Positions 6,177-20,248 of a DNA stretch of 64,000 bases are shown here, piece after piece. Below the pieces are notes generated by a model. It was not told where the DNA came from, searched no databases, and saw nothing but the letters and a program-made list of their open reading frames with translations. Source of the DNA: Elusimicrobiota bacterium (lineage in GTDB: Bacteria; Elusimicrobiota; Elusimicrobia; FEN-1173); assembly GCA_016706425.1 (NCBI GenBank), contig JADJJR010000001.1:385728-449727 (forward strand). Reading direction: 5' to 3'. The position numbers and the translations under genes are program-made. How positions within the stretch are numbered: position 1 is the stretch's first letter; each line of letters starts with the position of its first letter.

Positions 6177-9100
6177 TTACGGATTGGCGGTGAGGGTGAC
6201 GGTGAGGTCTTGTGTTGCCTCGGTGTCGGAGGCGGCGGGCATGTCGAGTCGGAACCAGAGAAAGCGGTTCTGGCCTGGGGAAACGGCCGAACCGGTTTGG
6301 GAACCGTCGATGGAGAAGACGGCGCCGGAGGCGAAGGCGGGGGAGCCGGTGACGACGTCCTCGGCGGCGAACCCGCCCAGCGCCGGACGGGCGGGGTGGA
6401 AGCCCGCCGAAAGGACCGCGATGTTGGCCGCGGTCGGCAGGGCGGCGCCGATGGCCCAGGGGGAGCCCGGGGTCGAAGTGGCCACGGAGAGGGAGTAGGT
6501 GCTGGTGACGTTGCCGTCGTTGAGAACGGTGACGGCGGTGGCGGTGTGGGAACTGGAGCCCACGGCCAAAAGCCCGAAGAGGTAGGGCGAGCCGGCGGTG
6601 ACGGAGACGGAGCGGTTGAGGAGCGCGGGGACGGCGCTGGCGGTGTTGGAAATGAGGGACCATTCGCCGACGTCGTCGACGCTCCAGAGAACGATGAAAT
6701 ACGTGTCGTTGGTGGGGACGGTCACGGTGGTCGATTGGGCGGTTCCCACGACGGCGGTGGTGGCGATGGTGACGGTGGTGGCGCCGGAGGGGGTGGTGGC
6801 GGTGCTCCAGACGGTGGCGGCGATTGTGGAATATTGGATTCGGTACTGGCCGACGAGGTTGTTGTAAACGAAGTCGTCGCCGGGGGCGGTCCAGGACAGG
6901 TTGATTTCGCCGGGCCCGCCGCCCGCGGCCGCGGACAGCGTGGACGACGAAGGCCCCACCCCCGTCCACAACGTCGACGTGGCCACGGACAACGCCGTGT
7001 AAGCGCTTTCCAGGCCGCCCGCGTCGACGGTTTTGACGCGGAAATAATATGTGGTGTCGGTTTGAAGCCCGAAATTCGCCGATGGCGAACGCCAGGGTTC
7101 GGTGGAAGTGAGGATCGCGCCGTATTTCGTGCCGCCGTCGTAGGTTTTGGGCGGGTCAAAGGCCCCCTCGGAGACGGCGGGGACCATCGTGGGAACGGTG
7201 GCTATCTGTAAATAATAGCTTAGCCCCGGTTCGGGGGTCGCTCCCGGGGCGTTGTCCGTTCCCTCGTTCCACATGAAGGTTCCCGTGGAGGCGGCGGTGG
7301 GGGAAAAGACGAAGGCGGTTTTAAGGACCGTGGGCGGGTTGGGGGCCACGTTGGCCACCGTTGAAAGGTTCCTGTAGACGCGGAGCTGGTTGTTCCCAGC
7401 GGTGTCCCGTCCCGTCACCACGAAATCCAGGTCGCCGTCGGCGTCGTAATCCCCCACGTCCAGGGAACCCAGGTAAAGATCCTCCGCCGCGGTGGGTTCC
7501 ACTTCAACGCGGGTGAAGGCCCCTCCCCCCGTGTTGATGTAGGCTCGTATTTCAGCCACCCCGCCCGCGGTCGCGCCCGTTAACCCGTGGACGAAGATGT
7601 CCAAATCGCCGTCGTTGTCGATGTCGCCCCATTGGGCCCCGCCCCGCGAATGCCCGCCGCCGGCCCCGTTGACTTCGATTTGGGTCGCGTTGAAAGTGCC
7701 GTTCCCGTTGTTTCGGTAAACGCGCAATTCCCGGCTGGCGGTGGTCGTTCCGGGCACCCCTTGGACCACAATGTCGAGATCGCCGTCGGCGTCGAAATCC
7801 CCCCAGTGGGCGCAATGTTTCCCGTTGTAGCCGTCGATGCCCTGGCCGGGATCCACGTTGATTTCGTTGGGATCGATGGTCCCGTTGCCGTTGTTCCGGT
7901 AAACATGGATGCGGCTGTCCGTCCCGGCTCCGGTCCACCCTTGAACAAGGATGTCCTGGTCTCCGTCCCCGTCGAAATCCCCCCAGTCCACGATCCCGTC
8001 GCGCAAGCCGCCGCCGGCCCCGTCGACTTCGATTTGGGCGGTGTCGAAGGTCCCGTTGCCGTTGTTGCGGTAGACGCGAATTTGCCGCGCGGAAGCGGCG
8101 TCGATGCCCCCGGCCAAGATGTCCAAGTCCCCGTCGTTGTCCAGGTCCCCCCAATTCACGTCCCCTTGGGTCAACCCGCCGTTCAGGCCGTCAATCTCGA
8201 TTTGGCCGGGATTGAAGGTGCCGTTGCCGTTGTTGCGATACACCCGCAATTGGGCCGAAGCCGCCGCGCCGCTGGTCAACGCCCCCGACGCGAGGACATC
8301 CAAATCACCGTCCCCGTCGAAATCCCCCCAATCGACGCCGCCGTCGCAAAGGCCGCCGCCGGCCCCGTCAATCTCGATTTGATTGGCGTCGAAAGACCCG
8401 TCCCCGTTGTTTCGATACACCCGCAATTGACACGCGCCGCCCCCCAAGCCGCTGGCCAAAATATCCAAGTCCCCGTCGTTGTCGAAATCCCCCCAAGACA
8501 CACCGCCCGCCTGGAGGCCGCCGGCCGCCCCGTCGATCTCCGATTGCGTGGGGGAAAAATACAGGGGGGGGGGAACCGCGCTCGCCGTGTTGGAAATCGG
8601 GGACGTCAGGCCGACGTCGTCGACGGTCCACAAAACGAAATACCACGTGCCGTTGTCGGGGACCGCGATGCCGGTGCTGACGGCCACCCCGGGGGCGATG
8701 GACGTCGCGGTGGTCAGGGTGTAGGCCCCGGCCGGCGTCGACGCGGGGTTCCAAACCGTGGCGGGGTTGGTGGCGTATTGGATGATGTAGCTGCCCGTCA
8801 GGGTCCCGGCGGTGAGGTCGTCGCCGACGGAAGTCCAGGACACGGTCACGTTGCCGCCCCCGGCGCCCGGGGCGGCGCTGATGGCCGACGCGGCGGGGGC
8901 GACGCCCGTCCACAGGGTCGACGAAGCGCTGGGCGCGCTCTCCAAAAGGCCCGCGTCGACGGTCCGGACCCGGAAATAGTAGGTCGTGTCGGTGCGAAGG
9001 CCCGGGTGGGCCAGGGCGGGGGCCCAGGGCGCGGTCGACTTCAACAGCACGCCGTGGCGGGTGTTCCCATCGAAAATCAACGGGGGCCGATCGTAGTTCC

Positions 9101-10598
9101 CCCGGCGGGGCGTCGCCCGGCTGTGGGGGGCCACGGTGTCGGGTGTGAAGGCCGCGAGGGTTGAAATTTCGATGTCGTAGTCCAACAGGCCGGGGGGGGT
9201 CGGGTTCGCCCCGAGGTCGGCGGCGGGGGCCCATTTGAACGTGGCCGTGGAGGATCCGGTGAGACTGAAACTGAAGGTCGAAGAAAGAACGGCGGGCGCG
9301 CCGGGGGCCGTTCCGGTGGTGATGTTGTTTTGATACACCCGCATGCGGCGGACGGCGGCGTTGTCGACGCCCGTGATGAAAAGGTCGATCCCCGTTGTGT
9401 TGTTGTAATCCGCCCAGGCCAGGTCGCCGTTTTGGAGCCCCAGGTTGACGGCGCTCTCCACGTTGAATTGCGTGAAGCCGAACCCGCCGTTGTTGCGGTA
9501 GACCCAGATCTCCACGTTGCCGGTGGCCGGCCGCAGGCCGACGACGGCGATATCCAAATCCCCGTCCGCGTCGGAATCGCCCACCGCCAACGCGCCGTTA
9601 CGGACCCCGAGGTTGGCCGCGCCCGGTATGTTGAAGGCGGTAAAGGTGTTGTTCCCGTTGTTGCGGTAAGCGCGCAATTGGGCGTTCGCGTTGTCAAACC
9701 CCATGGCAACGACGTCCAGCCATCCGTCGGCGTTCAGGTCCCCGAACGCCACGTCACCGTCTTGGAACCCGCCCACGCCCCCGGTCACGTCGAGGGGGCC
9801 GGTAAAACCGCCGTTGCCGTTGTTGGTGTAAATGTGAACCTGTCGGCCCGCCCCGTTTTGTCCGGACACCAACACGTCCAGATCCCCGTCGTTGTCGGGG
9901 TCGCCCCAAGCCACGGAACTGCGGGCGGCGTACCCGTTTCCGGCGCCGGCGACTTCCACCTGAGTCGGGTCGAAGGTGGCGTTTCCGTTGTTCCGGTAGA
10001 CGCGCAGTTGACGGGCCCCGGCGGAATCCTGGCCGCTGACCAAAAGATCCAGGTCGCCGTCGTTGTCGAAATCCCCCAGGGCGGGTTTCCCCAGGTCCAA
10101 CCCGCCGCCCGCTCCTCCGTCGATATCGATTTGCGTAAACGCGAGCGCCCCGTTGTTGCGGGCCACGAGGATGTGGCGTGTGGCCGCGGCCCCCCGATTG
10201 CCGCACAGGACGATGTCCAAATCCCCGTCCCCGTCCAGGTCGCCCAGGGCGAGGCCCCCGTCCTCCAGACCCGTGCTGCCGGCCCCCAGAACGTTCGTGG
10301 GGTTGTTGGCGATGGTGTACGTGGGCGCCGCCCCGACGGTGTAAACGCTGAGGCGGCGGTTGCCGCCCGAATCGTTGCCGCTGACGACGAGGTCCAAATC
10401 GCCGTCGTTGTCCATGTCCCCCCAGGCGGTCCCCCCTTCCGTCAGCCGGTCCGCGGCGGTGTTTTCAAAATTCAATTCAACGGCGTTGTAAGGAAGAGCG
10501 AAAGCCCCGCGCGCCAAGAAAAAGCCGGCCCCGGCGAGGAACAAGACGCGACGGAACGCACCGCCGCGGGCGATGGGAAGGGGGGGGGTGTCTGTCAT
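6177..10598 (-). CDS. 1473-aa secreted FG-GAP/VCBS repeat protein: two 7-repeat propellers, four FN3-like domains, C-terminal pilin-like domain (putative tip adhesin)
   Basis: Signal peptide ending AFA; 14 xGDxDxDGDLD-type repeats in two blocks of 7; YYFRVxTVDAG and SWTxxGDD FN3-like units; last approx. 145 aa align with the 187-aa ORF at 20995. Confidence 0.85.
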   Translation of the reverse strand: MTDTPPLPIARGGAFRRVLFLAGAGFFLARGAFALPYNAVELNFENTAADRLTEGGTAWGDMDNDGDLDLVVSGNDSGGNRRLSVYTVGAAPTYTIANNPTNVLGAGSTGLEDGGLALGDLDGDGDLDIVLCGNRGAAATRHILVARNNGALAFTQIDIDGGAGGGLDLGKPALGDFDNDGDLDLLVSGQDSAGARQLRVYRNNGNATFDPTQVEVAGAGNGYAARSSVAWGDPDNDGDLDVLVSGQNGAGRQVHIYTNNGNGGFTGPLDVTGGVGGFQDGDVAFGDLNADGWLDVVAMGFDNANAQLRAYRNNGNNTFTAFNIPGAANLGVRNGALAVGDSDADGDLDIAVVGLRPATGNVEIWVYRNNGGFGFTQFNVESAVNLGLQNGDLAWADYNNTTGIDLFITGVDNAAVRRMRVYQNNITTGTAPGAPAVLSSTFSFSLTGSSTATFKWAPAADLGANPTPPGLLDYDIEISTLAAFTPDTVAPHSRATPRRGNYDRPPLIFDGNTRHGVLLKSTAPWAPALAHPGLRTDTTYYFRVRTVDAGLLESAPSASSTLWTGVAPAASAISAAPGAGGGNVTVSWTSVGDDLTAGTLTGSYIIQYATNPATVWNPASTPAGAYTLTTATSIAPGVAVSTGIAVPDNGTWYFVLWTVDDVGLTSPISNTASAVPPPLYFSPTQSEIDGAAGGLQAGGVSWGDFDNDGDLDILASGLGGGACQLRVYRNNGDGSFDANQIEIDGAGGGLCDGGVDWGDFDGDGDLDVLASGALTSGAAASAQLRVYRNNGNGTFNPGQIEIDGLNGGLTQGDVNWGDLDNDGDLDILAGGIDAASARQIRVYRNNGNGTFDTAQIEVDGAGGGLRDGIVDWGDFDGDGDQDILVQGWTGAGTDSRIHVYRNNGNGTIDPNEINVDPGQGIDGYNGKHCAHWGDFDADGDLDIVVQGVPGTTTASRELRVYRNNGNGTFNATQIEVNGAGGGHSRGGAQWGDIDNDGDLDIFVHGLTGATAGGVAEIRAYINTGGGAFTRVEVEPTAAEDLYLGSLDVGDYDADGDLDFVVTGRDTAGNNQLRVYRNLSTVANVAPNPPTVLKTAFVFSPTAASTGTFMWNEGTDNAPGATPEPGLSYYLQIATVPTMVPAVSEGAFDPPKTYDGGTKYGAILTSTEPWRSPSANFGLQTDTTYYFRVKTVDAGGLESAYTALSVATSTLWTGVGPSSSTLSAAAGGGPGEINLSWTAPGDDFVYNNLVGQYRIQYSTIAATVWSTATTPSGATTVTIATTAVVGTAQSTTVTVPTNDTYFIVLWSVDDVGEWSLISNTASAVPALLNRSVSVTAGSPYLFGLLAVGSSSHTATAVTVLNDGNVTSTYSLSVATSTPGSPWAIGAALPTAANIAVLSAGFHPARPALGGFAAEDVVTGSPAFASGAVFSIDGSQTGSAVSPGQNRFLWFRLDMPAASDTEATQDLTVTLTANP

Positions 10599-10689
10599 CC
10601 GGCTTTAAGCATAGCTTAGTTGGGGATTTTTTCAACACCCATTATGGGGGGGCCCCCGCCGATGGGGGGGGCTGGTTTTGGGGTTGGGG

Positions 10690-13164
10690 TTACGGATTGG
10701 CGGTGAGGGTGACGGTGAGGGTCTGTTGGTTTTCGGTGTCGGAAACGGTGGGCATGTCGAGGCGGAACCAGAGGGAGCGGTTTTGTCCGGCCGGAACGGC
10801 GACGCCGGTTTCACTTCCGTTGATGGTGAAGATCGCCCCGGTGGCCAGGGCGGCGGCGCCGGTGACGACGTCCTCCGCGCCGAAGGCCGCGGCCGCCGGC
10901 CGGGACGGATGGAAGCCCGCGGAAAGGACGGCCACGTTGGGGCCGGTCGGCAAAGAGGTGCCGATGGACCAAGGGCTTCCCGCTGTGGTCGTCGCGACCC
11001 AAAGGGAGTAGGTGCTGGTCACGTTCCCGTCGTTCAAGACGGTCACGCCGGTGGCGGAGTGGGAACTGCTTCCCACGATCAAGTTGCCGAAAGCGTAGGG
11101 GTCGCCCGCGGTGACGGTCACGGAACGGATATAAGGGGCGGGGGCGGAGCCGGCGGTGGCCGACACCACGGACCATTCCCCCACGTCGTCCCGGCTCCAA
11201 AGGACGAAATAATACGTGTCGTTGGTGGGCACGTTGATGACGGCGGATTGGGCGCTCCCGACGGGGGTGTTGGTGGCGATGCCGACGGTGGTGGCCCCGG
11301 CGGGGGTGGTGGCGGTGCTCCAGGGGGTGGCGGCGTCCGTGGAATACTGGACGCGGAACGCGCCCACCAACGGGTTGTAAAAATTATCGTCCCCGGGGGC
11401 GGACCAGGATAGGTTGATGTCCCCGGGGGCCGCCCCGGCAACGGCGGCGAGCGTGGACGTTCCGGGCGCCACGCCCGTCCAGAGGGTTTGATTGGCGCTG
11501 GGCGCGCTGGGGAGAAGCCCCGCGTCCATCGTGCGGACGCGGAAATAGTAGGTGGTGTCGGTCCGCAGTCCCGGGTGGGCGTTGTTCCCGGCCCACGGTT
11601 GGGTGGAACGCAAGATCACGCCGTGCCGGGTGTTCCCGTCGTAAAGGCGGGGGGGGCGGAGGTAATTGCCCGTCCGCGGTGTGGTCATGCGCATGGCGGG
11701 GATCGTGGCCCGGGAGAAATCGGACGACGTGGAAACCTCGAGGTCGTACGTCAAGGTAACGGCCGGGGTCGCTCCCGGGGCGACGTCCGCGGCGGGGTCC
11801 CATTTGAAGGTGGCCGAGGAATACCCGGTGGGGGAGAAAGCGAAAGACCCCGCGAGCGTGGGCGGCGCGCCCGGCGCCGCGGCGGTGCTGATGGTGTTGC
11901 GATAAACCCGCATTTGCCGGGCGTTCGCGCTGTCCGACCCGGAGATCAAAAGGTCGGGACTTCCGTCGGCGTTGTAATCGGCCCAAGCCAAGCCGCCGTT
12001 CTGCAATCCCAAATTGTTGGCGCTTTCCACGTTGAATTGGGTAAAGGCGAAACCGCCGTTGTTCCGGTAGAGCCAGACCTCCTCGTTCCCCGTGGCGGGC
12101 CGGGTGCCCACCACCGCGAAGTCCGGCACCCCGTCGTTGTTGGAGTCGCCGATGGCCAGGGCGCCGTTTCGAATTCCAAGGTTGGCCGCGCCGGGCGCTT
12201 CGAACGCGGTGAAGGTGAATCCGGGCCCGCCGTTGTTTCGGTAGGCGCGCAATTGGGCGTTGGTGCCGCTGTTGCCCATGGCGACCACGTCCAAAAGGCC
12301 GTCGTTGTTTAAATCCCCGAAAGCGACGTCGGCGTCGGACATCCCGCCCACGCCGGCCGTCACGTCCAACGGTCCGGCAAAACCGCCGTTTCCGTTGTTG
12401 GTGAAAAGGTGCAAGCGTCGCCCCCCGGCGGAGAGCCCGGCCACAAGCAAATCGAGGAACCCGTCGTTGTTGTAGTCCCCCCAGGCCACGCCGCTCCGGG
12501 TGGCGTAACCGTTCCCGGCGGCGCCGGGCACTTCGATTTGGGTGGGGTCGAAGGTCGCGTCGCCGTTGTTTCGGTACACCCGAAATTGCCGCGCGCCCGC
12601 CGGGTCGAGTCCGCTGACGGCCAAGTCCAGGTCCCCGTCGTTGTCGAAATCGCCGAGGGCGGGTTCCCCGCCGTCCAGCCCCGACCCGGCGTCCACGGGG
12701 ATCGAACTGAAGGAAAGCCCGCCGTTGTTGCGGGCCACCAGGATCTGCCGGGTCGCCGCCCCCCCGCGATTGCCCGTGACGACAATGTCCAAGCGCCCGT
12801 CGCCGTTGAGGTCGCCCAGGGCCACTTCCCCCGACTGAAGGCCGTTGTTGAGTCCAAAGACTTCGGTTTGCGTGGCGTTGATGGCGTAGCCCGGCGCACC
12901 CCCGTTGGTGTAGACCCGCAATTGACGGTTCCCGGCGGAATCTTGCCCGCTGAGGACCAAATCCAAATCCCCGTCCCCGTCCATATCGCCCCAGGCGGCG
13001 CCGCCTTGTGTCAGTCGATCGGTGGCGGTCACGGGCTCCACTTCAATTTGGAGGGCGTTGTAAGGGAGGGCTTGGAGCCGGGGGGAGGCCTCGAAAAGGA
13101 GTGCCAGGCCCCCCAGGATAAACCAGCGTCGTCCCGGGAAAAGTGAACGAAAAAAGGAACGCAT
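10690..13164 (-). CDS. 824-aa secreted FG-GAP/VCBS repeat protein: one 7-repeat propeller, two FN3-like domains, C-terminal pilin-like domain (putative tip adhesin)
   Basis: Signal peptide ending LQA; 7 FG-GAP repeats; close paralog of 6177-10598; ends LWFRLDMPTVSDTENQQTLTVTLTANP. Confidence 0.85.
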   Translation of the reverse strand: MRSFFRSLFPGRRWFILGGLALLFEASPRLQALPYNALQIEVEPVTATDRLTQGGAAWGDMDGDGDLDLVLSGQDSAGNRQLRVYTNGGAPGYAINATQTEVFGLNNGLQSGEVALGDLNGDGRLDIVVTGNRGGAATRQILVARNNGGLSFSSIPVDAGSGLDGGEPALGDFDNDGDLDLAVSGLDPAGARQFRVYRNNGDATFDPTQIEVPGAAGNGYATRSGVAWGDYNNDGFLDLLVAGLSAGGRRLHLFTNNGNGGFAGPLDVTAGVGGMSDADVAFGDLNNDGLLDVVAMGNSGTNAQLRAYRNNGGPGFTFTAFEAPGAANLGIRNGALAIGDSNNDGVPDFAVVGTRPATGNEEVWLYRNNGGFAFTQFNVESANNLGLQNGGLAWADYNADGSPDLLISGSDSANARQMRVYRNTISTAAAPGAPPTLAGSFAFSPTGYSSATFKWDPAADVAPGATPAVTLTYDLEVSTSSDFSRATIPAMRMTTPRTGNYLRPPRLYDGNTRHGVILRSTQPWAGNNAHPGLRTDTTYYFRVRTMDAGLLPSAPSANQTLWTGVAPGTSTLAAVAGAAPGDINLSWSAPGDDNFYNPLVGAFRVQYSTDAATPWSTATTPAGATTVGIATNTPVGSAQSAVINVPTNDTYYFVLWSRDDVGEWSVVSATAGSAPAPYIRSVTVTAGDPYAFGNLIVGSSSHSATGVTVLNDGNVTSTYSLWVATTTAGSPWSIGTSLPTGPNVAVLSAGFHPSRPAAAAFGAEDVVTGAAALATGAIFTINGSETGVAVPAGQNRSLWFRLDMPTVSDTENQQTLTVTLTANP

Positions 13165-13277: not shown

Positions 13278-15485
13278 TCAATCCGGGGGGGGCGCCGATT
13301 CTTTCGTTGTTAAGGGCACGACGTGCTCCGCGGTGCCCCAGCGCCAAAAAAGCGTTCCCGACAACCCGCGCCGCGGCGGCAGGCCGATTTCGTCCTCCAC
13401 CAGATAAATGAGGGCCGTTCCGAACCGAGGGTTCCAGAATTTTTGCGCGCGGGCGGCCAGGGAGGTGGTTTGGTCCCCCGTGACGCCGACGGCGACGGTG
13501 TTCACGGCGTTGCTGCTGGAGCGGCTCAGCGTCAATTCGAAAAAATCATCGGTCCGCGCCCCGTACCGGCGCAGGGCGATTTCCCGGGCGTAGCCGGCGC
13601 CCGTGGTTTGCGGGATCCAGCTGAAACGCGTTCGGGCATACCAACGGCCCGCGTATTTGGCCAGGGAAACCGCGTAAATGTCCACGTCGTCCAGGCGGAA
13701 ATCCATGTGCCGGTAGCGGAAGGAAGCCTCCCACTGCTTGCCAAAGGATTGGAATATCTCCCCGTGCCCTTCGACCCGGGGGACCACCTCGGCCTTGACC
13801 ACGGCTTGGAACCGGGCGTTGGCGTAGGCCTTGGGCCAGAGGGCCAGATAGCCCTCGGCGGCGCCGCCCCGGTCGGTGCGGCCGAACCGACGGTAGCGCA
13901 ATCCTTCGACGGTGAGACTGCCCCGTCGGACTTTGCGCTCCATCACCCAGGTGGTGGTGTACCAGGCGTTGCGCGGCGGCCCGTAGCTCTGCCGCTCGTA
14001 GCTGTTGGAAAATTGCCAATACGCCCCCCGCGCGGGGGCGCCCGCCAGAAACAACGAAAGGAGGGTCAGTCCCGCGGCGATTTTGGCGGGGCGATGGAGG
14101 ACCCCGAGTCGTTTCATCGCGCCCCACCCCTTGACCCGGAACAGGGACGTCAACAAACCGTGAAGGCGCCAGTACGTCACCAGTTGCCGGTACCCGAAAT
14201 TCTCCAAAAAAGCGAGGACGAAGAGGTGCATGTAATCCCGGGTTCGGCGGAAACGATGAAAAGACTGTTCCTCCAGCGACACGGCGGCGATCGAAAGGGC
14301 CATCCCGAACCCGAAGGCCAGGAGCGCGAAGGCCGCCACATAGGCGGCGGACACCCGGCCACCGATCAGGGCCGCCACAAAAGCCACGTAGCCGAACAGC
14401 TCCACAACAGGCCCCAGCATTTCCAGAAAAAAATAATAGGGGAAGGCGATGAGGCCGGGCGCGCCGTAGCCGGGATTCCCCAGCATGCGGATGTGCCGCA
14501 GGAGCGAATCCACCAGCCCGCGTTGCCAGCGGTCGCGCTGTCGCGCCAGCCCCGACAGTCTTTCCGGGCATTCCGTCCAGGCGACGGGATCCGGCACGAA
14601 GGTGATGCGGTAAAGACGTTTTTTCTCCCGGCAAAAACGGTGCAGCCGGACGATCAGCTCCATGTCCTCGCCGACCGTGTCCCGGGCGAAGCCGCCGGCC
14701 TCGATCACCACCGACCGACGGAATAACCCGAAAGCCCCCGAGATGATCAGCAGGGCGGACATCGCGTCCCAGCCCATTCGGCCCGTCAAAAAGGCACGCA
14801 AATACTCCAACACCTGGAACCGGGCCAGCCAGCGGTCGGGCATGCGGACGTCCGTCAGAACCCCCCCCTTGAACACGCAGCCGTTGGCGATGCGCACCAA
14901 CCCCCCGGCGGCGACCGTGGTGTCGTTTTCGATGAAGGGGCGGACGATGCGCTTGAGCGCGTCGCGTTCCAGGACGCAATCCGCGTCCATGGCGCAAAAA
15001 AGCGGCGTCCGGCAATGGTTGAGCCCGGCGTTCAGGGCGTCGGCCTTGCCGCCGTTTTCCTTGTCCAAAACCCACAACCGGGGATGGCGGGCGCTGCGCA
15101 ACGTGGCGCGCACGCGCGCGGTCGGCAACGTGGCGAGGGGAAACCGGTTCGCGGGAACGAGATCGAAAGCCCGGGCCAATTCGCCCAGGGTGTCGTCGGT
15201 GGACCCGTCGTTGATCACGAGGATTTCGTAATCGCCGTACTCCAGCGTCAGCAACGATTTGACCGCTTCCACGCAGGTGGGTTCTTCGTTGTGAGCGGGA
15301 ACGAGGAGCGTGATGGCGGGGGCGCCGCCCCGGGCGACGTAGTCGTCGAGGACATGCAGGAGTCGTGACCGGGAGGCGTGACGCCGAAGGGCCGCGATGG
15401 AAAATCCGGCCGTGAGCAGCTGCGACCCGTTGAGCAGGACGAAATACAACAGCGCGAACGCATTGAACCCGTCGAGGAACGTCAC
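13278..15485 (-). CDS. GT2 processive glycosyltransferase fused in frame to a YaiO-family outer-membrane beta-barrel
   Basis: Likely GTG start at 15485 overlapping the upstream stop. Motifs NDGS, NGGKADALN, MDAD, GEDMEL, QRDRW; TM helices; WGAMKRLG; then a signal-like stretch and a YaiO-like barrel from about 14117. Confidence 0.85.
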   Translation of the reverse strand: MTFLDGFNAFALLYFVLLNGSQLLTAGFSIAALRRHASRSRLLHVLDDYVARGGAPAITLLVPAHNEEPTCVEAVKSLLTLEYGDYEILVINDGSTDDTLGELARAFDLVPANRFPLATLPTARVRATLRSARHPRLWVLDKENGGKADALNAGLNHCRTPLFCAMDADCVLERDALKRIVRPFIENDTTVAAGGLVRIANGCVFKGGVLTDVRMPDRWLARFQVLEYLRAFLTGRMGWDAMSALLIISGAFGLFRRSVVIEAGGFARDTVGEDMELIVRLHRFCREKKRLYRITFVPDPVAWTECPERLSGLARQRDRWQRGLVDSLLRHIRMLGNPGYGAPGLIAFPYYFFLEMLGPVVELFGYVAFVAALIGGRVSAAYVAAFALLAFGFGMALSIAAVSLEEQSFHRFRRTRDYMHLFVLAFLENFGYRQLVTYWRLHGLLTSLFRVKGWGAMKRLGVLHRPAKIAAGLTLLSLFLAGAPARGAYWQFSNSYERQSYGPPRNAWYTTTWVMERKVRRGSLTVEGLRYRRFGRTDRGGAAEGYLALWPKAYANARFQAVVKAEVVPRVEGHGEIFQSFGKQWEASFRYRHMDFRLDDVDIYAVSLAKYAGRWYARTRFSWIPQTTGAGYAREIALRRYGARTDDFFELTLSRSSSNAVNTVAVGVTGDQTTSLAARAQKFWNPRFGTALIYLVEDEIGLPPRRGLSGTLFWRWGTAEHVVPLTTKESAPPPD

Positions 15486-16543
15486 GTGGACTCCAGGATC
15501 TGCCGCGCCAAAACCGCGCGCGGGTGGGGGGAAGACGCCACCGCCCGCAGGAAAGTGAGCGCCCCGATGCGTTTCAGGGCGTCCGCGGCGTGGGACGCGA
15601 CCCACACGTTCGGTGTGTCGAAAAAGTCCCGCAGAAACGCTTCCTCGCCGGGGCCGCCCACCCGCCCCAGGGCGGTCAAAGCGGCCGCGCGGACGAAAAA
15701 AGACGGCGCCGCGCAGGCGGCGCGGATCGATTCCAAATGCTCGGGTCGTCCCAGGTTCTTCAAAATCGCAAGGACGGCGCTCAGGATTTCCGGATCGGTT
15801 TCATTCGACAAAACACGCGCGGCGCAGTCCCCGGCCAAGGGGTCCTGCAGACGCACCAACGATTGCGCCGCAATTTGGCGAGCGCGGAGGCCGCGCCCGC
15901 GGTCCTCGAGAATTTGGCGCAAGTCCCCGGCGATCCCCGCGCCCACCTGCCCCAGAAGAAAAGACAACAAGCCGGTGTCCCACGTCCCGAACCGGTCCAG
16001 GCGTTGGAGCACCGTGCGCGCGTCGTCCGCCGAGCGATGGGTCAAAAGGACAAAGGCGGCGGTCACGGCCACGGAAGACGAAGGGTCGTCCAGCGCCGCG
16101 CGGATCGGTTCGTTGAAGCGGACGGGGGCCAGGAGGCCCAACGTGTAGACCGCGCGCGCCCTTTTTTCCGGGTCGGGGTCCGGGAGACGCTCGGCCACGG
16201 CGCCCAGGAACGGCGCCGCCAGGGTGGTCAGAACCCGGCGTTCGGGCCCGCGCAATCTTCGGGCGAATTGGAGGAGGAAGTGGGAAAAGGCCGAGGCTTG
16301 GTTTTTCCCAACCAAACGCAGGAGGACGGGGGGGCCTTCCTCCCCCGAAAGGACCCGGAGGATGGCGCGCGTCCAGGTTTCTTGGATCGCCCGCTCCGAC
16401 CTGGATTTTTGAAAGGAGCGGGCGCCCGCGAGGACGGCGTAAACCGCGAAACCGCAGGCCAACAAGAAAAGCCCCAGGCCCGCGCCCGCCATACACCAAA
16501 GAAGCCGGTCGGGGGGGGCCGCGGGGAGGGACAATCCCATCAC
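15482..16543 (-). CDS. HEAT-repeat protein with N-terminal TM helix
   Basis: Repeated LxDxxxxVRxxAxxALG-type units (DPDPEKRARAVYTLG, AAPSFFVRAAALTALG); translationally coupled to the GT2 gene. Confidence 0.8.
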   Translation of the reverse strand: MMGLSLPAAPPDRLLWCMAGAGLGLFLLACGFAVYAVLAGARSFQKSRSERAIQETWTRAILRVLSGEEGPPVLLRLVGKNQASAFSHFLLQFARRLRGPERRVLTTLAAPFLGAVAERLPDPDPEKRARAVYTLGLLAPVRFNEPIRAALDDPSSSVAVTAAFVLLTHRSADDARTVLQRLDRFGTWDTGLLSFLLGQVGAGIAGDLRQILEDRGRGLRARQIAAQSLVRLQDPLAGDCAARVLSNETDPEILSAVLAILKNLGRPEHLESIRAACAAPSFFVRAAALTALGRVGGPGEEAFLRDFFDTPNVWVASHAADALKRIGALTFLRAVASSPHPRAVLARQILEST

Positions 16544-18078
16544 TTGGATTTCATGTGGCGGTGAACCCGCGCCACGAGCTCCACCGGTGAAAACGGTTTT
16601 AGAATATAATCGTCGGCCCCGAGGGCAAGGCCCCGGACCACATCGTTTTCACCCCCCATGGAGGTCAACATCAGAATCGGCGTTTTTTCAAAAGCGGGAA
16701 CCGCGCGGAGGCGCTCCAGCAGTTCAAAGCCGTCCATCGCCGGCATTTTCACGTCCAAGATCATCAAATCGGGGTTTGTGTCGGAGGCCGCCGCCAACGC
16801 GGCGGCGCCGTCCATAAAGGGGGCGACGAGAAACCCTTCCCGCTCCAGACGGTGACGCACCAGGGCGATGACCAGTTCGTCGTCGTCGACGACCATGATC
16901 GTTTTTCGGGTTCGGCCGACGCCCTTGCGGTGCAGGGCGATTCGTCCCGCCCCCTGGGCCCGGGCCTCGGCGAGGGCCTCCGTTGCGCGCGAAAGCAGGA
17001 CCTCCACCGTGACGCCCTCCTCGGCCTCCGTCACCCCCGCGGAAAAGGTGACCCGCGTGGTGGAGCCCTGGGGAAGCGGGTACCGTTCCGTGGACAGGGC
17101 GCCCAGGGCGCGTTCCAGGGTCAGGATCGCCGTGTCGGTGGCCACCGATGGAAAAAGCGCCGCCAGCCGATCCCCTTCCCAACGGGTCAGCACGCCCATG
17201 GGTTGAATGGCGCGCCCCACGGCCTTGGCCGCCCAGGCCAAAATGTCTTCGGCGGCCCCGTCTCCCTGGGACGCGCGGATCACGGCCAGGGTGTCCACTT
17301 CCATCAGTCCGACGCTTATGACCCGCTGCGGGCCCGGCAAAAGCAATTCCGCGCGGCGGAAAAGCTTGAGAAAACCCGCGCGATTGGGGAGCCCGGTTGA
17401 AAGGTCACGCTCAAACCCGGCGGGGGACCCCTCCCCGGGGCGCAAACGTTTTTCCACTTCCCGCGCCAGGGCCTCGAGTTCCAGGGGTTTGGAAAAGCAG
17501 GCGTCGGCCCCTAAAGACAGGCATTCCTGGCGCACGGGCCCGCTGGCCCAGGCGCTCAAAACCAACACGGGGATCGAGGCCGTCTCGGGGAGCCCTTTCC
17601 ATTTGGACAACAAACGACGCCCGTCGATATCCGGCAATACCAAGTCCAGCAGGATCAAGGCCGGGGGGTGTTCTTTGAGGCGGTGTTCCGCCTCGAGGGC
17701 GGTGTGCGCCACGGTGACCGCGCGGCCGGTCGAGCCCAATTTGGCCGCCAAAAGGGCCGTGACGTCGGCGTCGTCATCAACAATCAAAACGCCCGAACGT
17801 TCGTCCCCCGTCAAGACCGAAGCCATGACGCGCAGCAGATCCTCGGTGCGGGCGCCGAGAGTCTCGGACGCCGCGCGTTCCACCGCCTGGGCGTGCTGCG
17901 AAATTTGCGGGAAACCGTAGGAGGCCCCGGAGCCCGTGAGCAGGTGGGCCAGCCGCCGGATCTCGGCCTCCGCCCCTTCCGCGCGGTTGCGCCAGCGTTC
18001 AAGTGCCAGTTCCACGGCGTGCCGCTTGTCGGGCAGAACCCGGCGGTACCAGAGTTTCAGTTCGGCGCTGTCATCCAC
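16540..18078 (-). CDS. Hpt-REC-degenerate GGDEF-REC multidomain response regulator
   Basis: Likely GTG start at 18078. AHLLTGSGASYGF (Hpt), LILLDLVLPD, LSTGLPNR, RWEGDRL in place of GGDEF, LMILDVKMP ... YILKPF. Confidence 0.85.
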   Translation of the reverse strand: MDDSAELKLWYRRVLPDKRHAVELALERWRNRAEGAEAEIRRLAHLLTGSGASYGFPQISQHAQAVERAASETLGARTEDLLRVMASVLTGDERSGVLIVDDDADVTALLAAKLGSTGRAVTVAHTALEAEHRLKEHPPALILLDLVLPDIDGRRLLSKWKGLPETASIPVLVLSAWASGPVRQECLSLGADACFSKPLELEALAREVEKRLRPGEGSPAGFERDLSTGLPNRAGFLKLFRRAELLLPGPQRVISVGLMEVDTLAVIRASQGDGAAEDILAWAAKAVGRAIQPMGVLTRWEGDRLAALFPSVATDTAILTLERALGALSTERYPLPQGSTTRVTFSAGVTEAEEGVTVEVLLSRATEALAEARAQGAGRIALHRKGVGRTRKTIMVVDDDELVIALVRHRLEREGFLVAPFMDGAAALAAASDTNPDLMILDVKMPAMDGFELLERLRAVPAFEKTPILMLTSMGGENDVVRGLALGADDYILKPFSPVELVARVHRHMKSK

Positions 18079-20248
18079 GCGGCGCCTCCGTCGGCTTCGA
18101 GGGACCGGGTTGAAACACCACACGGAACACCGAACCCCGATCGACTTCGCTCTCCAGTTCCATGCGAAACCCCAAAAGGTCGACCAGGGCCCGCGACACC
18201 GTCAGCCCCAGGCCCGTGCCGCCGAATTTCCGCGCGGTGCCGTTATCGACTTGCTGAAACGCCTCGAAAATCCGGCCCACCTTGTCGGGCGGTATCCCGA
18301 TGCCGGTGTCGGCCACCTCCAGCGCGGACGGCGCGCCGTCCGCCCCGGCGCGGACGCGGACCGTCACGGACCCTTGCGGAGTGAACTTCATGGCGTTGCC
18401 GATAAGGTTGATGAGCACTTGTTTCAATTTCCCCGGGTCCGTTTGGAGGGGAGTCGTTGGCCCGGGCAAGTCCGAACGCAGAACCACCGGGCCCCCTTCG
18501 GGCAGCCCCCCCCTCAGTTGTTCGACGGTCTCCGTGACCAGCCGCCCCAAATCCACCGCGGCGTTGTTAACGGGCATGCGACCGGCCTCGACCCGCGAGA
18601 GGTCCAGGATGCTGTTGATCAATTCCAGAAGGTGCAATCCGTTTCCTTGGATCTTTTGAAGCCGGACGAGGTCTTCGGGACCGAGGTTCTCTTTTTTGTT
18701 TTTCAGGAGCAGGTTGGCGAATCCGATGACCGAGTTGAGAGGGGTGCGCAGTTCGTGGCTCATTTGGGCCAGGAAGACGCTTTTGGCCTTGTTCGCGGCA
18801 TCCGCCTCGTTTTTCGCTTGGCGCAGGGCCGCTTCCAAGTATTTTTGTTCTGTGATGTCTTCAACGACGCAAAGAATATATCGGAATTGCCCCTGGGCGT
18901 CTTTGATCGGCACCCGGCGCACACGCAACATTCTCCGTTTCCGCATACGGGTCGTCACGAATTCCAGGTCGGTCTCGCTGGGGCGCCCCGACGCCACCAC
19001 CGCGCGATCGTGCGACTCAAACACGTCGGCTTCTTCCGGGAGAAAACAATCGTGGTTGCGTCGGCCGATCATTTCCCAACGGGAGATTCCCAAAAGGCGT
19101 TCCCCCGCCGGGTTGACGTGCACGAACCGGAGTTTTTCCGCGTCTTTAACATAGACGACCGACGGCATTTCGTGGAGGACGGAATCGAGGAAAAGGACCG
19201 ACTGGCGCATTTCCAGCGTCAATGTCCGGGCCAATTGAAGGGCGTCCGTGTGCGCCCGACGGTTTCCAATCACCAGCCCCCCGCCCACCGCCGCGATCAG
19301 AAAACCGCCCACCAGAACCCACACGGCCGGCAACCGGAACCAGGGGTCCCCCTTTCCCGATGGGGTTACAACCAAGAGCCAGGAGCGATCCGCGGCCGGG
19401 ACCGTCGTGGAGAATTCCGGGCCCGGGATTTTGACGGGGGGCGATCCCACGAGCCAACTGCCCGGGGGAGGTGTCGCGGTGTCCCACAAGGCAAAATCCA
19501 AGGGGCCCGCCCGTGTTTTTATGGTCTCTCTCAATCGCGGCATGGCGAGCGCGACAACGATAAAACCGCGCAGGAGTTTCCGGCGTTCGGCCACTGAAGA
19601 CGGGGCGGGGCCGTTCCGGTAGACCGCTGCGTAAAAAACGACACCCCGGGTGGCGACTCCGCCCACGCCGCCTTTGAGGGGCAGGGGCGCGGTGACGGCC
19701 ACTCCCCCCGAATCCCGGGCTTTTTCCATGGCGGTTCGCCGGTCGGGATCCGCCCAGCTGTCGTACCCCGACAAAACACGCTGGGTTCCGAAATGCGAGG
19801 TAAAAAAAAGGAGCGGGGCGGATTCCTCTCGTCGACCTGACGGGGGGGGCGTCCGCGGGGAAAAGCCACCGGGACGGGACCCGGGGGCGGCCGCCCTCAA
19901 GAAGGGGGCGTACCCCAAGTTAATGGGGCCGTCCGGTTTCAAATTCAAGGCATTGATGTACCCCGACCAAAGGCCCGCGTCGAGCCGGTCGTGGGTTTGG
20001 AAGGCGGCCCGGGTCGTCAAGGCGGTGTTTTCGCAGGCGCGAATCGATTCGGTCAAAAGGTTTTGCCCCAGGTTCAAAGCGCGCGCCATTTCGGAGCGAC
20101 GCTCGCGCGCGTTCCAGCGGTGAACCCCCCAGGTCAGAAAAATGGTCAAGGTGACAAGACCGCACCCCAGGTATTTGGCCAAGGACAAGCCTTGTTCCAC
20201 GCGGCCCAACAACCGCGGGGCGGGGAGATCGGGAGACGAAAGATTCAT
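18071..20248 (-). CDS. Sensor histidine kinase (TM-CHASE-TM-PAS-HisKA-HATPase)
   Basis: CHASE-like DPDRRTAMEKARDSG, PAS (VYVKD, VNPAGE), MSHELRTPLN, NLIGNAMKFT, DTGIGI, GTGLGL. Confidence 0.92.
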   Translation of the reverse strand: MNLSSPDLPAPRLLGRVEQGLSLAKYLGCGLVTLTIFLTWGVHRWNARERRSEMARALNLGQNLLTESIRACENTALTTRAAFQTHDRLDAGLWSGYINALNLKPDGPINLGYAPFLRAAAPGSRPGGFSPRTPPPSGRREESAPLLFFTSHFGTQRVLSGYDSWADPDRRTAMEKARDSGGVAVTAPLPLKGGVGGVATRGVVFYAAVYRNGPAPSSVAERRKLLRGFIVVALAMPRLRETIKTRAGPLDFALWDTATPPPGSWLVGSPPVKIPGPEFSTTVPAADRSWLLVVTPSGKGDPWFRLPAVWVLVGGFLIAAVGGGLVIGNRRAHTDALQLARTLTLEMRQSVLFLDSVLHEMPSVVYVKDAEKLRFVHVNPAGERLLGISRWEMIGRRNHDCFLPEEADVFESHDRAVVASGRPSETDLEFVTTRMRKRRMLRVRRVPIKDAQGQFRYILCVVEDITEQKYLEAALRQAKNEADAANKAKSVFLAQMSHELRTPLNSVIGFANLLLKNKKENLGPEDLVRLQKIQGNGLHLLELINSILDLSRVEAGRMPVNNAAVDLGRLVTETVEQLRGGLPEGGPVVLRSDLPGPTTPLQTDPGKLKQVLINLIGNAMKFTPQGSVTVRVRAGADGAPSALEVADTGIGIPPDKVGRIFEAFQQVDNGTARKFGGTGLGLTVSRALVDLLGFRMELESEVDRGSVFRVVFQPGPSKPTEAPRG

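Follow-up and report, generated by a model that had tools for sequence, protein, structure and literature searches.

How could one gene deliver an enzyme to the inner membrane and a barrel to the outer membrane? The question is raised by a single open reading frame (ORF) in a 64,000-nucleotide stretch of an Elusimicrobiota bacterium genome (assembly GCA_016706425.1, contig JADJJR010000001.1, positions 385,728 to 449,727)—the window, whose own numbering is used throughout—in which a membrane glycosyltransferase of family 2 (GT2) continues in frame into a YaiO-family outer-membrane β-barrel. A sequence-only reading of the window had noticed the join and offered three explanations: a polyprotein cut by signal peptidase, an internal translation start, or a recent stop loss. 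We find that the fusion is genuine, recurrent, and selected. Cleavage of a polyprotein by signal peptidase is the best supported of the three options on the sequence evidence, and internal initiation may contribute as well.

A synthase and a barrel in one reading frame

The fused gene occupies positions 13278–15485 of the minus strand and reads uninterrupted from 15485 to 13278 for 735 codons plus a stop. Its GTG start at 15485 shares the tetranucleotide GTGA with the stop codon of the HEAT-repeat gene upstream, and aligned homologues begin at the equivalent place. Both domains are recognized in the same 735-residue chain, as the sequence-only reading had claimed. Pfam Glyco_tranf_2_3 matches residues 56–323 (E = 6e-25), and Pfam YaiO (PF19413) matches residues 493–654 (E = 5.5e-19; 69.2 bits against a cut-off of 23.9). 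The NCBIfam model TIGR04390 (OMP_YaiO_dom) covers residues 494–716 with 76.6 bits against a cut-off of 32, extending over model positions 5–230 of 230. Full-length homologues that carry both GT2 and PF19413 are 718–739 aa long.

An AlphaFold2 (AF2) model of the full-length protein, built from a 58-row alignment, reached a mean predicted local distance difference test score (pLDDT) of 89.6. It comprises a long N-terminal transmembrane helix, a GT-A domain, helices at 310–448, a low-confidence linker at 449–467, a short helix at 468–480, a 14-strand barrel at 489–717, and a disordered 19-residue tail. Local confidence was ~90 in the GT2 module and ~88–95 in the barrel, whose 14 strands appeared in two independent runs.

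The GT2 synthase module (residues 1–456; 14118–15485, minus strand) is delimited by Pfam, AF2, Foldseek, and motif positions. It consists of an N-terminal transmembrane helix (3–33), the GT-A domain (56–330), and transmembrane or interface helices (338–448). Its D, DxD, GED, and QxxRW motifs—D93, D167-A-D169, G272-E-D274, and Q316-R-D-R-W320—are invariant in the alignment except at A168 and at D318, which varies only slightly. When the full-length model was submitted to Foldseek, all matches were to GT2 proteins, led by Chlorella virus hyaluronan synthase (7sp7; E = 1.5e-16, TMt 0.59), BcsA (4p00; E = 4.6e-15), and Chs1 (E = 3e-12). Assignment to the PgaC/IcaA poly-N-acetylglucosamine synthases was rejected: The equivalog model TIGR03937 scored 129.2 bits against a cut-off of 422.3, which leaves the enzyme related to PgaC only. 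With low confidence, the polymer may be N-acetylhexosamine-based.

The mature barrel (residues 486–716; 13338–14030, minus strand) is defined by PF19413, TIGR04390, AF2, Foldseek, and its ratio of nonsynonymous to synonymous substitution rates (dN/dS). Its 14 predicted strands end in an aromatic, β-signal-like TLFWRW that aligns with the RW or RF ends of relatives. The barrel needed a model of its own for structure comparison, and with this barrel-only model Foldseek found generic outer-membrane barrels (the 14-strand barrels OmpG, TM 0.63, and FadL, 0.60; the PgaA barrel 4y25, 0.55) and no close solved homologue. The PgaA, BcsC, and AlgE barrels have 16–18 strands, against the 14 predicted here. 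Beyond the β-signal, alignment and AF2 delimit a disordered, clade-specific C-terminal tail of 19 aa (GTAEHVVPLTTKESAPPPD; 13281–13337, minus strand). This tail, beginning GTAEHVVPL after LFWRW, is confined to the protein's own clade; relatives mostly stop exactly at RW or RF.

The two modules meet at the junction RVKGWGAM457KRLGVLHRPAK-IAAGLTLLSLFLAG-APA485↓RGAYWQF, where the arrow marks the predicted cut. The C-terminal family motif KGWGAM (residues 452–457; 14115–14132, minus strand) is coded by AAGGGGTGGGGCGCGATG, which doubles as a Shine-Dalgarno (SD)-like run and an in-frame ATG (14117–14115). A retained signal peptide occupies residues 457–485 (14031–14117, minus strand), with an n-region MKRLGVLHRPAK (net +4), an h-region IAAGLTLLSLFLAG, and the c-region APA. 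Both elements that the sequence-only reading had placed after the GT2 end motif, a Sec signal and an internal ATG at 14117, are thus present. Signal peptidase I (SPase I) is predicted to cut between A485 and R486 (nucleotides 14031/14030), the counterpart of LWA↓RDAGYWE and LGA↓RDAGYWE in two unfused Elusimicrobiota relatives (G168 and L001, respectively). The alternative RGA488↓Y lies nearest the barrel but has an unfavorable Arg at −3, and the better APA↓R site lies three residues upstream, which leaves the exact cut uncertain.

These features extend to the other fused proteins identified below. All 15 have an h-region of 12–22 aa (median 16) followed directly by a small-residue −3/−1 site; the n-region is net positive in 14, at +2 to +5 in 13 of those. 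In these respects the segments match the signal peptides of stand-alone YaiO proteins. Gln stands at +1 in 10 of the 15; according to PMC5837995, Bacteroidetes proteins cut by SPase I typically have this residue there. Across the 39-codon junction, protein identity among this protein and its two fused sister species (P0003 and P0004) is 44–49%; judged from these sequences, this is the usual behavior of a signal peptide, with composition kept and sequence free. The host genome carries one gene for BamA and two for SPase I.

Origin, age, and recurrence of the fusion

GT2 and YaiO are normally separate genes, as the sequence-only reading had assumed: The fusion is absent from each of 80 loci of GTDB species representatives and from each of 300 further genomes of the phylum. 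The closest unfused relatives are two Elusimicrobiota, L001 and G168, the latter from the same family and 66% identical in the GT2 part. Unfused loci, those of more distant relatives included, consist of a response regulator (Hpt-REC-GGDEF-REC or REC alone), a HEAT_2 protein, a GT2 of ~470 aa, and a YaiO of 250–430 aa. GT2 and YaiO meet either at a stop/start overlap (GTGA, ATGA, or TGATG) or across one in-frame stop; in both L001 and G168 the GT2 stop overlaps the YaiO start as GTGA. The stand-alone YaiO of G168 begins with the signal peptide M-NRWWILAAFAVPSGLWA↓RDAGYWE. From these arrangements the ancestral state would be separate genes with the GT2 stop overlapping the YaiO start.

Split HEAT-GT2-YaiO operons—L001/G168, L002, Fidelibacterota L007/L013, and Stutzerimonas stutzeri L070—resemble the fused locus in their proteins and in the upstream regulator and HEAT genes, with GT2 parts 60–67% and barrels 26–43% identical to the fused protein. 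Each of their YaiO proteins has its own signal peptide ending AxA↓(Q/R). They differ in keeping two genes, and many of their YaiO genes include a periplasmic TPR domain. YaiO lies directly downstream of GT2 and overlaps it in ~20 loci, and lies upstream in Proteobacteria (order YaiO-HEAT-GT2). At three loci (L036, L041, and L063; in the last, Agrilutibacter niabensis, at L063:5495-5500) GT2 and YaiO are in frame and separated by one stop followed immediately by ATG, an arrangement a single point mutation short of fusion.

The simplest doubt about the fused gene is that an indel at the junction reflects an assembly or sequencing error, or that a stop was lost very recently with inactivating or neutral effect. 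We found no point in support of this explanation and consider it vanishingly improbable. The 90%-identity cluster of the protein holds 13 sequence variants, all of 729–735 aa and of identical architecture, on more than 50 independent contigs from four sources (NCBI, ENA, JGI, and Logan), some of them 2.5 Mb long. The fusion is also common to the sister species-level clusters P0003 and P0004 (six full-length variants), each 83% identical to this protein, and analogous fusions exist in other lineages. On these grounds, as far as assemblies can tell, an artefact was rejected.

Among the three fused species, pairwise synonymous divergence (dS) is 0.9–1.4, and dN/dS is 0.08–0.10 for GT2 and 0.08–0.11 for the barrel; by this measure, purifying selection acts with equal strength on barrel and synthase. 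The stop loss proposed in the sequence-only reading therefore holds in one respect and fails in another: Fusion did occur through loss of the stop/start overlap, but with dS ~1 between fused species and the barrel under selection (dN/dS 0.08–0.11) it was not recent, and a recent event was rejected.

The same fusion, which the sequence-only reading had proposed to seek in relatives, occurs in the sister species and in further lineages, making 15 fused proteins altogether. A protein search returned 12 of them from other lineages, 46–51% identical overall, and their loci have the same upstream genes as here. On GT2-only trees the fused state requires six changes (FastTree, 198 rows) or seven (IQ-TREE PMSF, 58 rows); starred branches force at least two changes (FastTree) and at least three (IQ-TREE). 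Unfused Elusimicrobiota sequences form the sister group of the clade that holds this protein (99, starred). A single fused clade is rejected by the approximately unbiased (AU) test (delta lnL 88.8, p = 0.00087). The linkers also vary by clade—some clades have none, one has GDGSAEDLVPRGG, and another has DSAPSTSSVARG—and such differences fit separate fusion events. By the trees and sequences, the fusion arose more than once, in at least two to three independent events. One fused relative, P0008 (L087:6001-8685), is 894 aa long and has a TPR domain of ~170 aa between signal segment and barrel; its ORF unites synthase, periplasmic scaffold, and porin.

We also approached the fusion from the barrel side, using a profile because a word-based search with the barrel alone gave only three close relatives, the barrel being too divergent. 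With the barrel profile, HMMER was run over all 1.84 billion representatives and yielded 2415 relatives. Among the best 150 of these, a GT2 fusion occurs only in this protein's own cluster, and the long matches that were checked (10; 487–855 aa) are all TPR+barrel proteins.

Possible routes from one chain to two membranes

We consider it probable, from the sequence features above, that the ORF is translated into a polyprotein and that SPase I splits this precursor into two parts of a synthase-dependent exopolysaccharide machine. The GT2 part (1–456), a processive membrane-embedded synthase/translocase of the hyaluronan/cellulose/chitin-synthase class, would insert in the inner membrane with its C terminus—the net-positive region from KGWGAMKR to RPAK—in the cytoplasm. 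The former YaiO signal peptide (457–485) would act as the last N-in/C-out segment and thread the barrel through SecYEG, whereupon SPase I would cut after A-P-A485. The freed 231-residue barrel, with its tail, would go to BamA and fold as a 14-strand outer-membrane polymer pore; the signal peptide would remain on the synthase as an extra C-terminal helix.

This order of events depends on the orientation of the segment before the cut. Loops 405–417 and 449–468 are both Arg/Lys-rich, and the helices between them (415–448) are short and amphipathic (R433, Q434, R440, and H442), like the interface helices of solved synthases. Because both flanking loops are strongly positive and the intervening helices are of this kind, the GT2 C terminus is predicted to be cytoplasmic, so that the next hydrophobic segment would cross N-in/C-out, as a signal peptide needs.

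The view that YaiO serves a synthase-dependent exopolysaccharide system as its pore in the outer membrane draws on three observations. Many relatives combine TPR and barrel; GT2 homologues of the monoderm Actinomycetota and Bacillota have no barrel nearby; and Escherichia coli carries yaiO in the gene string yaiS-yaiP-yaiX-yaiO. A periplasmic TPR scaffold is missing from the protein itself; P0008 and many stand-alone YaiO relatives have one. We found nothing usable in the literature on YaiO function or on the HEAT+GT2 module.

We infer topology, cleavage and its site, and the barrel's role as a polymer pore, and several points weigh against this account. Cleavage is predicted purely by sequence rules and topology by charge and hydropathy, and the exact position of the SPase I cut is uncertain. 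Polysaccharide conduction by YaiO is argued from genetic coupling and architecture. A 19-residue tail past the β-signal is unusual for BamA-recognized barrels of Proteobacteria. Finally, the internal ATG has AAGGGG 9 nt and GGGG 4 nt upstream, and some or all of the barrel could start there.

The last point bears on a different explanation, in which ribosomes initiate at ATG 14117 (M457) behind the SD-like AAGGGGTGGGG, a pre-YaiO protein (MKRLGVLHRPAK, h-region, APA↓) is made apart, and the fusion merely extends the synthase. From M457 onward the sequence is indeed a textbook signal peptide, most fused relatives keep Met457, and fused relative P0011 has a GTG with a GGGGGG run at the apparent ancestral YaiO start. 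Yet AAGGGGTGGGG simply encodes the conserved KGWGAM(E/K)R end and does so equally in unfused genes, where initiation would yield a peptide of ~16 residues. The Met is replaced (KSWGSAKR) in all six full-length variants of the fused sister species P0004, and fused relative P0023 has no in-frame ATG, GTG, or TTG ahead of the hydrophobic core. The host's own genes carry stronger GAGGAG sites (upstream of 13164), and a full-length chain would still be made and need handling. We therefore regard separate initiation as the sole source of the barrel as unlikely. The polyprotein route is favored because the KGWGAM coding is shared with unfused genes, the Met is absent in P0004, and P0023 lacks a start; as a conserved dedicated start, the internal ATG was rejected.

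Any gene with the KGWGAM motif must spell it as AARGGNTGGGGNGCNATG, which combines an SD-like run with an ATG, and the same is seen in L002 and L084–L087. In unfused genes the run lies ~15 codons before the yaiO stop/start overlap, where it might aid ribosome re-initiation.

A further alternative leaves the chain intact: The hydrophobic segment would stay in the membrane for good as an anchor, with the barrel as a dead passenger or as a domain with a new periplasmic or inner-membrane role. An h-region of 20–22 aa in some relatives (P0003, P0008, and P0011) would suit an anchor. We nevertheless hold this to be very unlikely. Purifying selection on the barrel matches that on the enzyme, and the barrel retains all family features, including the C-terminal aromatic β-signal. 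No linker spans the periplasm, the barrel beginning four residues past the c-region, and the −3/−1 site is kept in each independent fusion. The domain is moreover the sole YaiO copy of its genome: No second YaiO domain was found in the host assembly (2.62 Mb, 99.45% complete).

The fusion might be more than an accident that the cell tolerates. It could have been selected as an assembly device—an obligate inner/outer-membrane polyprotein whose barrel is exported cotranslationally from the synthase's own translocon, placing one pore beside each synthase—a proposal we regard as tentative and rather doubtful. Equally speculative, and joined to it, is the idea that the cleaved signal peptide is kept as a functional extra transmembrane helix and that a conduit built in cis has evolved repeatedly, in Elusimicrobiota and in other lineages.

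Cleavage would make this a rare bacterial instance of a single chain that supplies an enzyme to the inner membrane and a protein to the outer one. It would mean that SecYEG and signal peptidase are able to process a barrel behind a polytopic protein, and would offer a simple design for stoichiometric coexpression of envelope-spanning machines. Should cleavage not be confirmed, a well-documented recurrent gene fusion stands. As a natural "Rosetta stone," the fusion ties the YaiO barrel family, as outer-membrane partner, to a specific class of membrane GT2 synthases. It also points to a module, widespread across many phyla, in which a HEAT protein, a GT2, and a YaiO barrel are controlled by two-component signaling.

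Related systems and neighboring genes

The fused gene is a variant of known synthase-dependent secretion systems, and AcsAB provides an earlier example of a synthase fusion that undergoes processing. In Gluconacetobacter hansenii, the AcsAB cellulose synthase is made with its partner as a single polypeptide that is proteolytically processed into two proteins (PMC4877109). AcsAB resembles the present case in joining a processive GT2 synthase and a normally separate downstream partner in one chain; it differs in that the partner, AcsB/BcsB, is periplasmic and anchored in the inner membrane rather than an outer-membrane barrel.

A second parallel is the cytochrome b-c1 polyprotein FbcH of Bradyrhizobium japonicum, in which an internal signal-peptide-like segment reportedly exports the second half and is the point of cleavage. 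Polyproteins of the FbcH type share with this one a single ORF that joins two normally separate proteins through such a segment. Both FbcH products belong to an inner-membrane complex, with no outer-membrane component and no polysaccharide function. Neither AcsAB nor FbcH releases an outer-membrane protein.

The Pga, Bcs, Alg, Pel, and Nfr systems likewise pair an inner-membrane GT2 with an outer-membrane β-barrel, and the TPR+barrel proteins among the relatives are built like PgaA and BcsC. They share a link to two-component or GGDEF-type signaling, although the GGDEF motif here is degenerate. The present locus departs from them in having a HEAT-repeat membrane protein in place of PgaD or BcsB and in encoding synthase and porin in one ORF.

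The E. coli K-12 cluster yaiS-yaiP-yaiX-yaiO is similar in that yaiO shares one gene string with the membrane GT2 gene yaiP. It differs in having separate genes and neither a HEAT protein nor two-component genes. YaiP is 26% identical to the GT2 part (E = 4e-8), whereas E. coli YaiO is not detectably similar to the barrel by pairwise BLAST (E = 0.08). At that locus (L091, 380069–384616) yaiO, yaiX (an acyltransferase gene split by IS2), yaiP (membrane GT2), and yaiS (deacetylase) lie on one strand, and the string looks like a cryptic, disrupted exopolysaccharide operon.

Upstream of the fused gene, on the same strand, lies the gene for the HEAT-repeat protein with an N-terminal transmembrane segment (15482–16543, minus strand), which is translationally coupled to the synthase. 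A HEAT_2 protein of ~350 aa with one N-terminal transmembrane segment occurs at all related loci that were inspected for their gene content, from Elusimicrobiota, metagenomic relatives of other lineages, and Pseudomonadota (L001, L002, L070, and L084–L090). Its gene precedes GT2 in all of these loci and usually overlaps it stop to start. By analogy with PgaD and its partner PgaC, the HEAT_2 protein may serve the synthase as a co-subunit.

Next comes a Hpt-REC-GGDEF-REC response regulator (16540–18123, minus strand) whose GGDEF domain scores 61 bits and has a degenerate signature (RWEGDRL). The signature reads EGDRL here and GGDRL, AGATF, AENAF, or GGAEF in relatives, and some loci have a REC-only protein. 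Judged by these residues, the domain probably lacks diguanylate cyclase activity; because the signature is degenerate, control of the module by cyclic di-GMP is doubtful. The same-strand gene string is headed by a putative sensor histidine kinase ORF (18071–20248, minus strand), and the homologous position in L084 holds a CHASE-PAS-HisKA-HATPase protein. Directly downstream of the fused gene, at 6177–13164 on the minus strand, lie the genes of two FG-GAP repeat proteins of very large size, 824 and 1473 aa.

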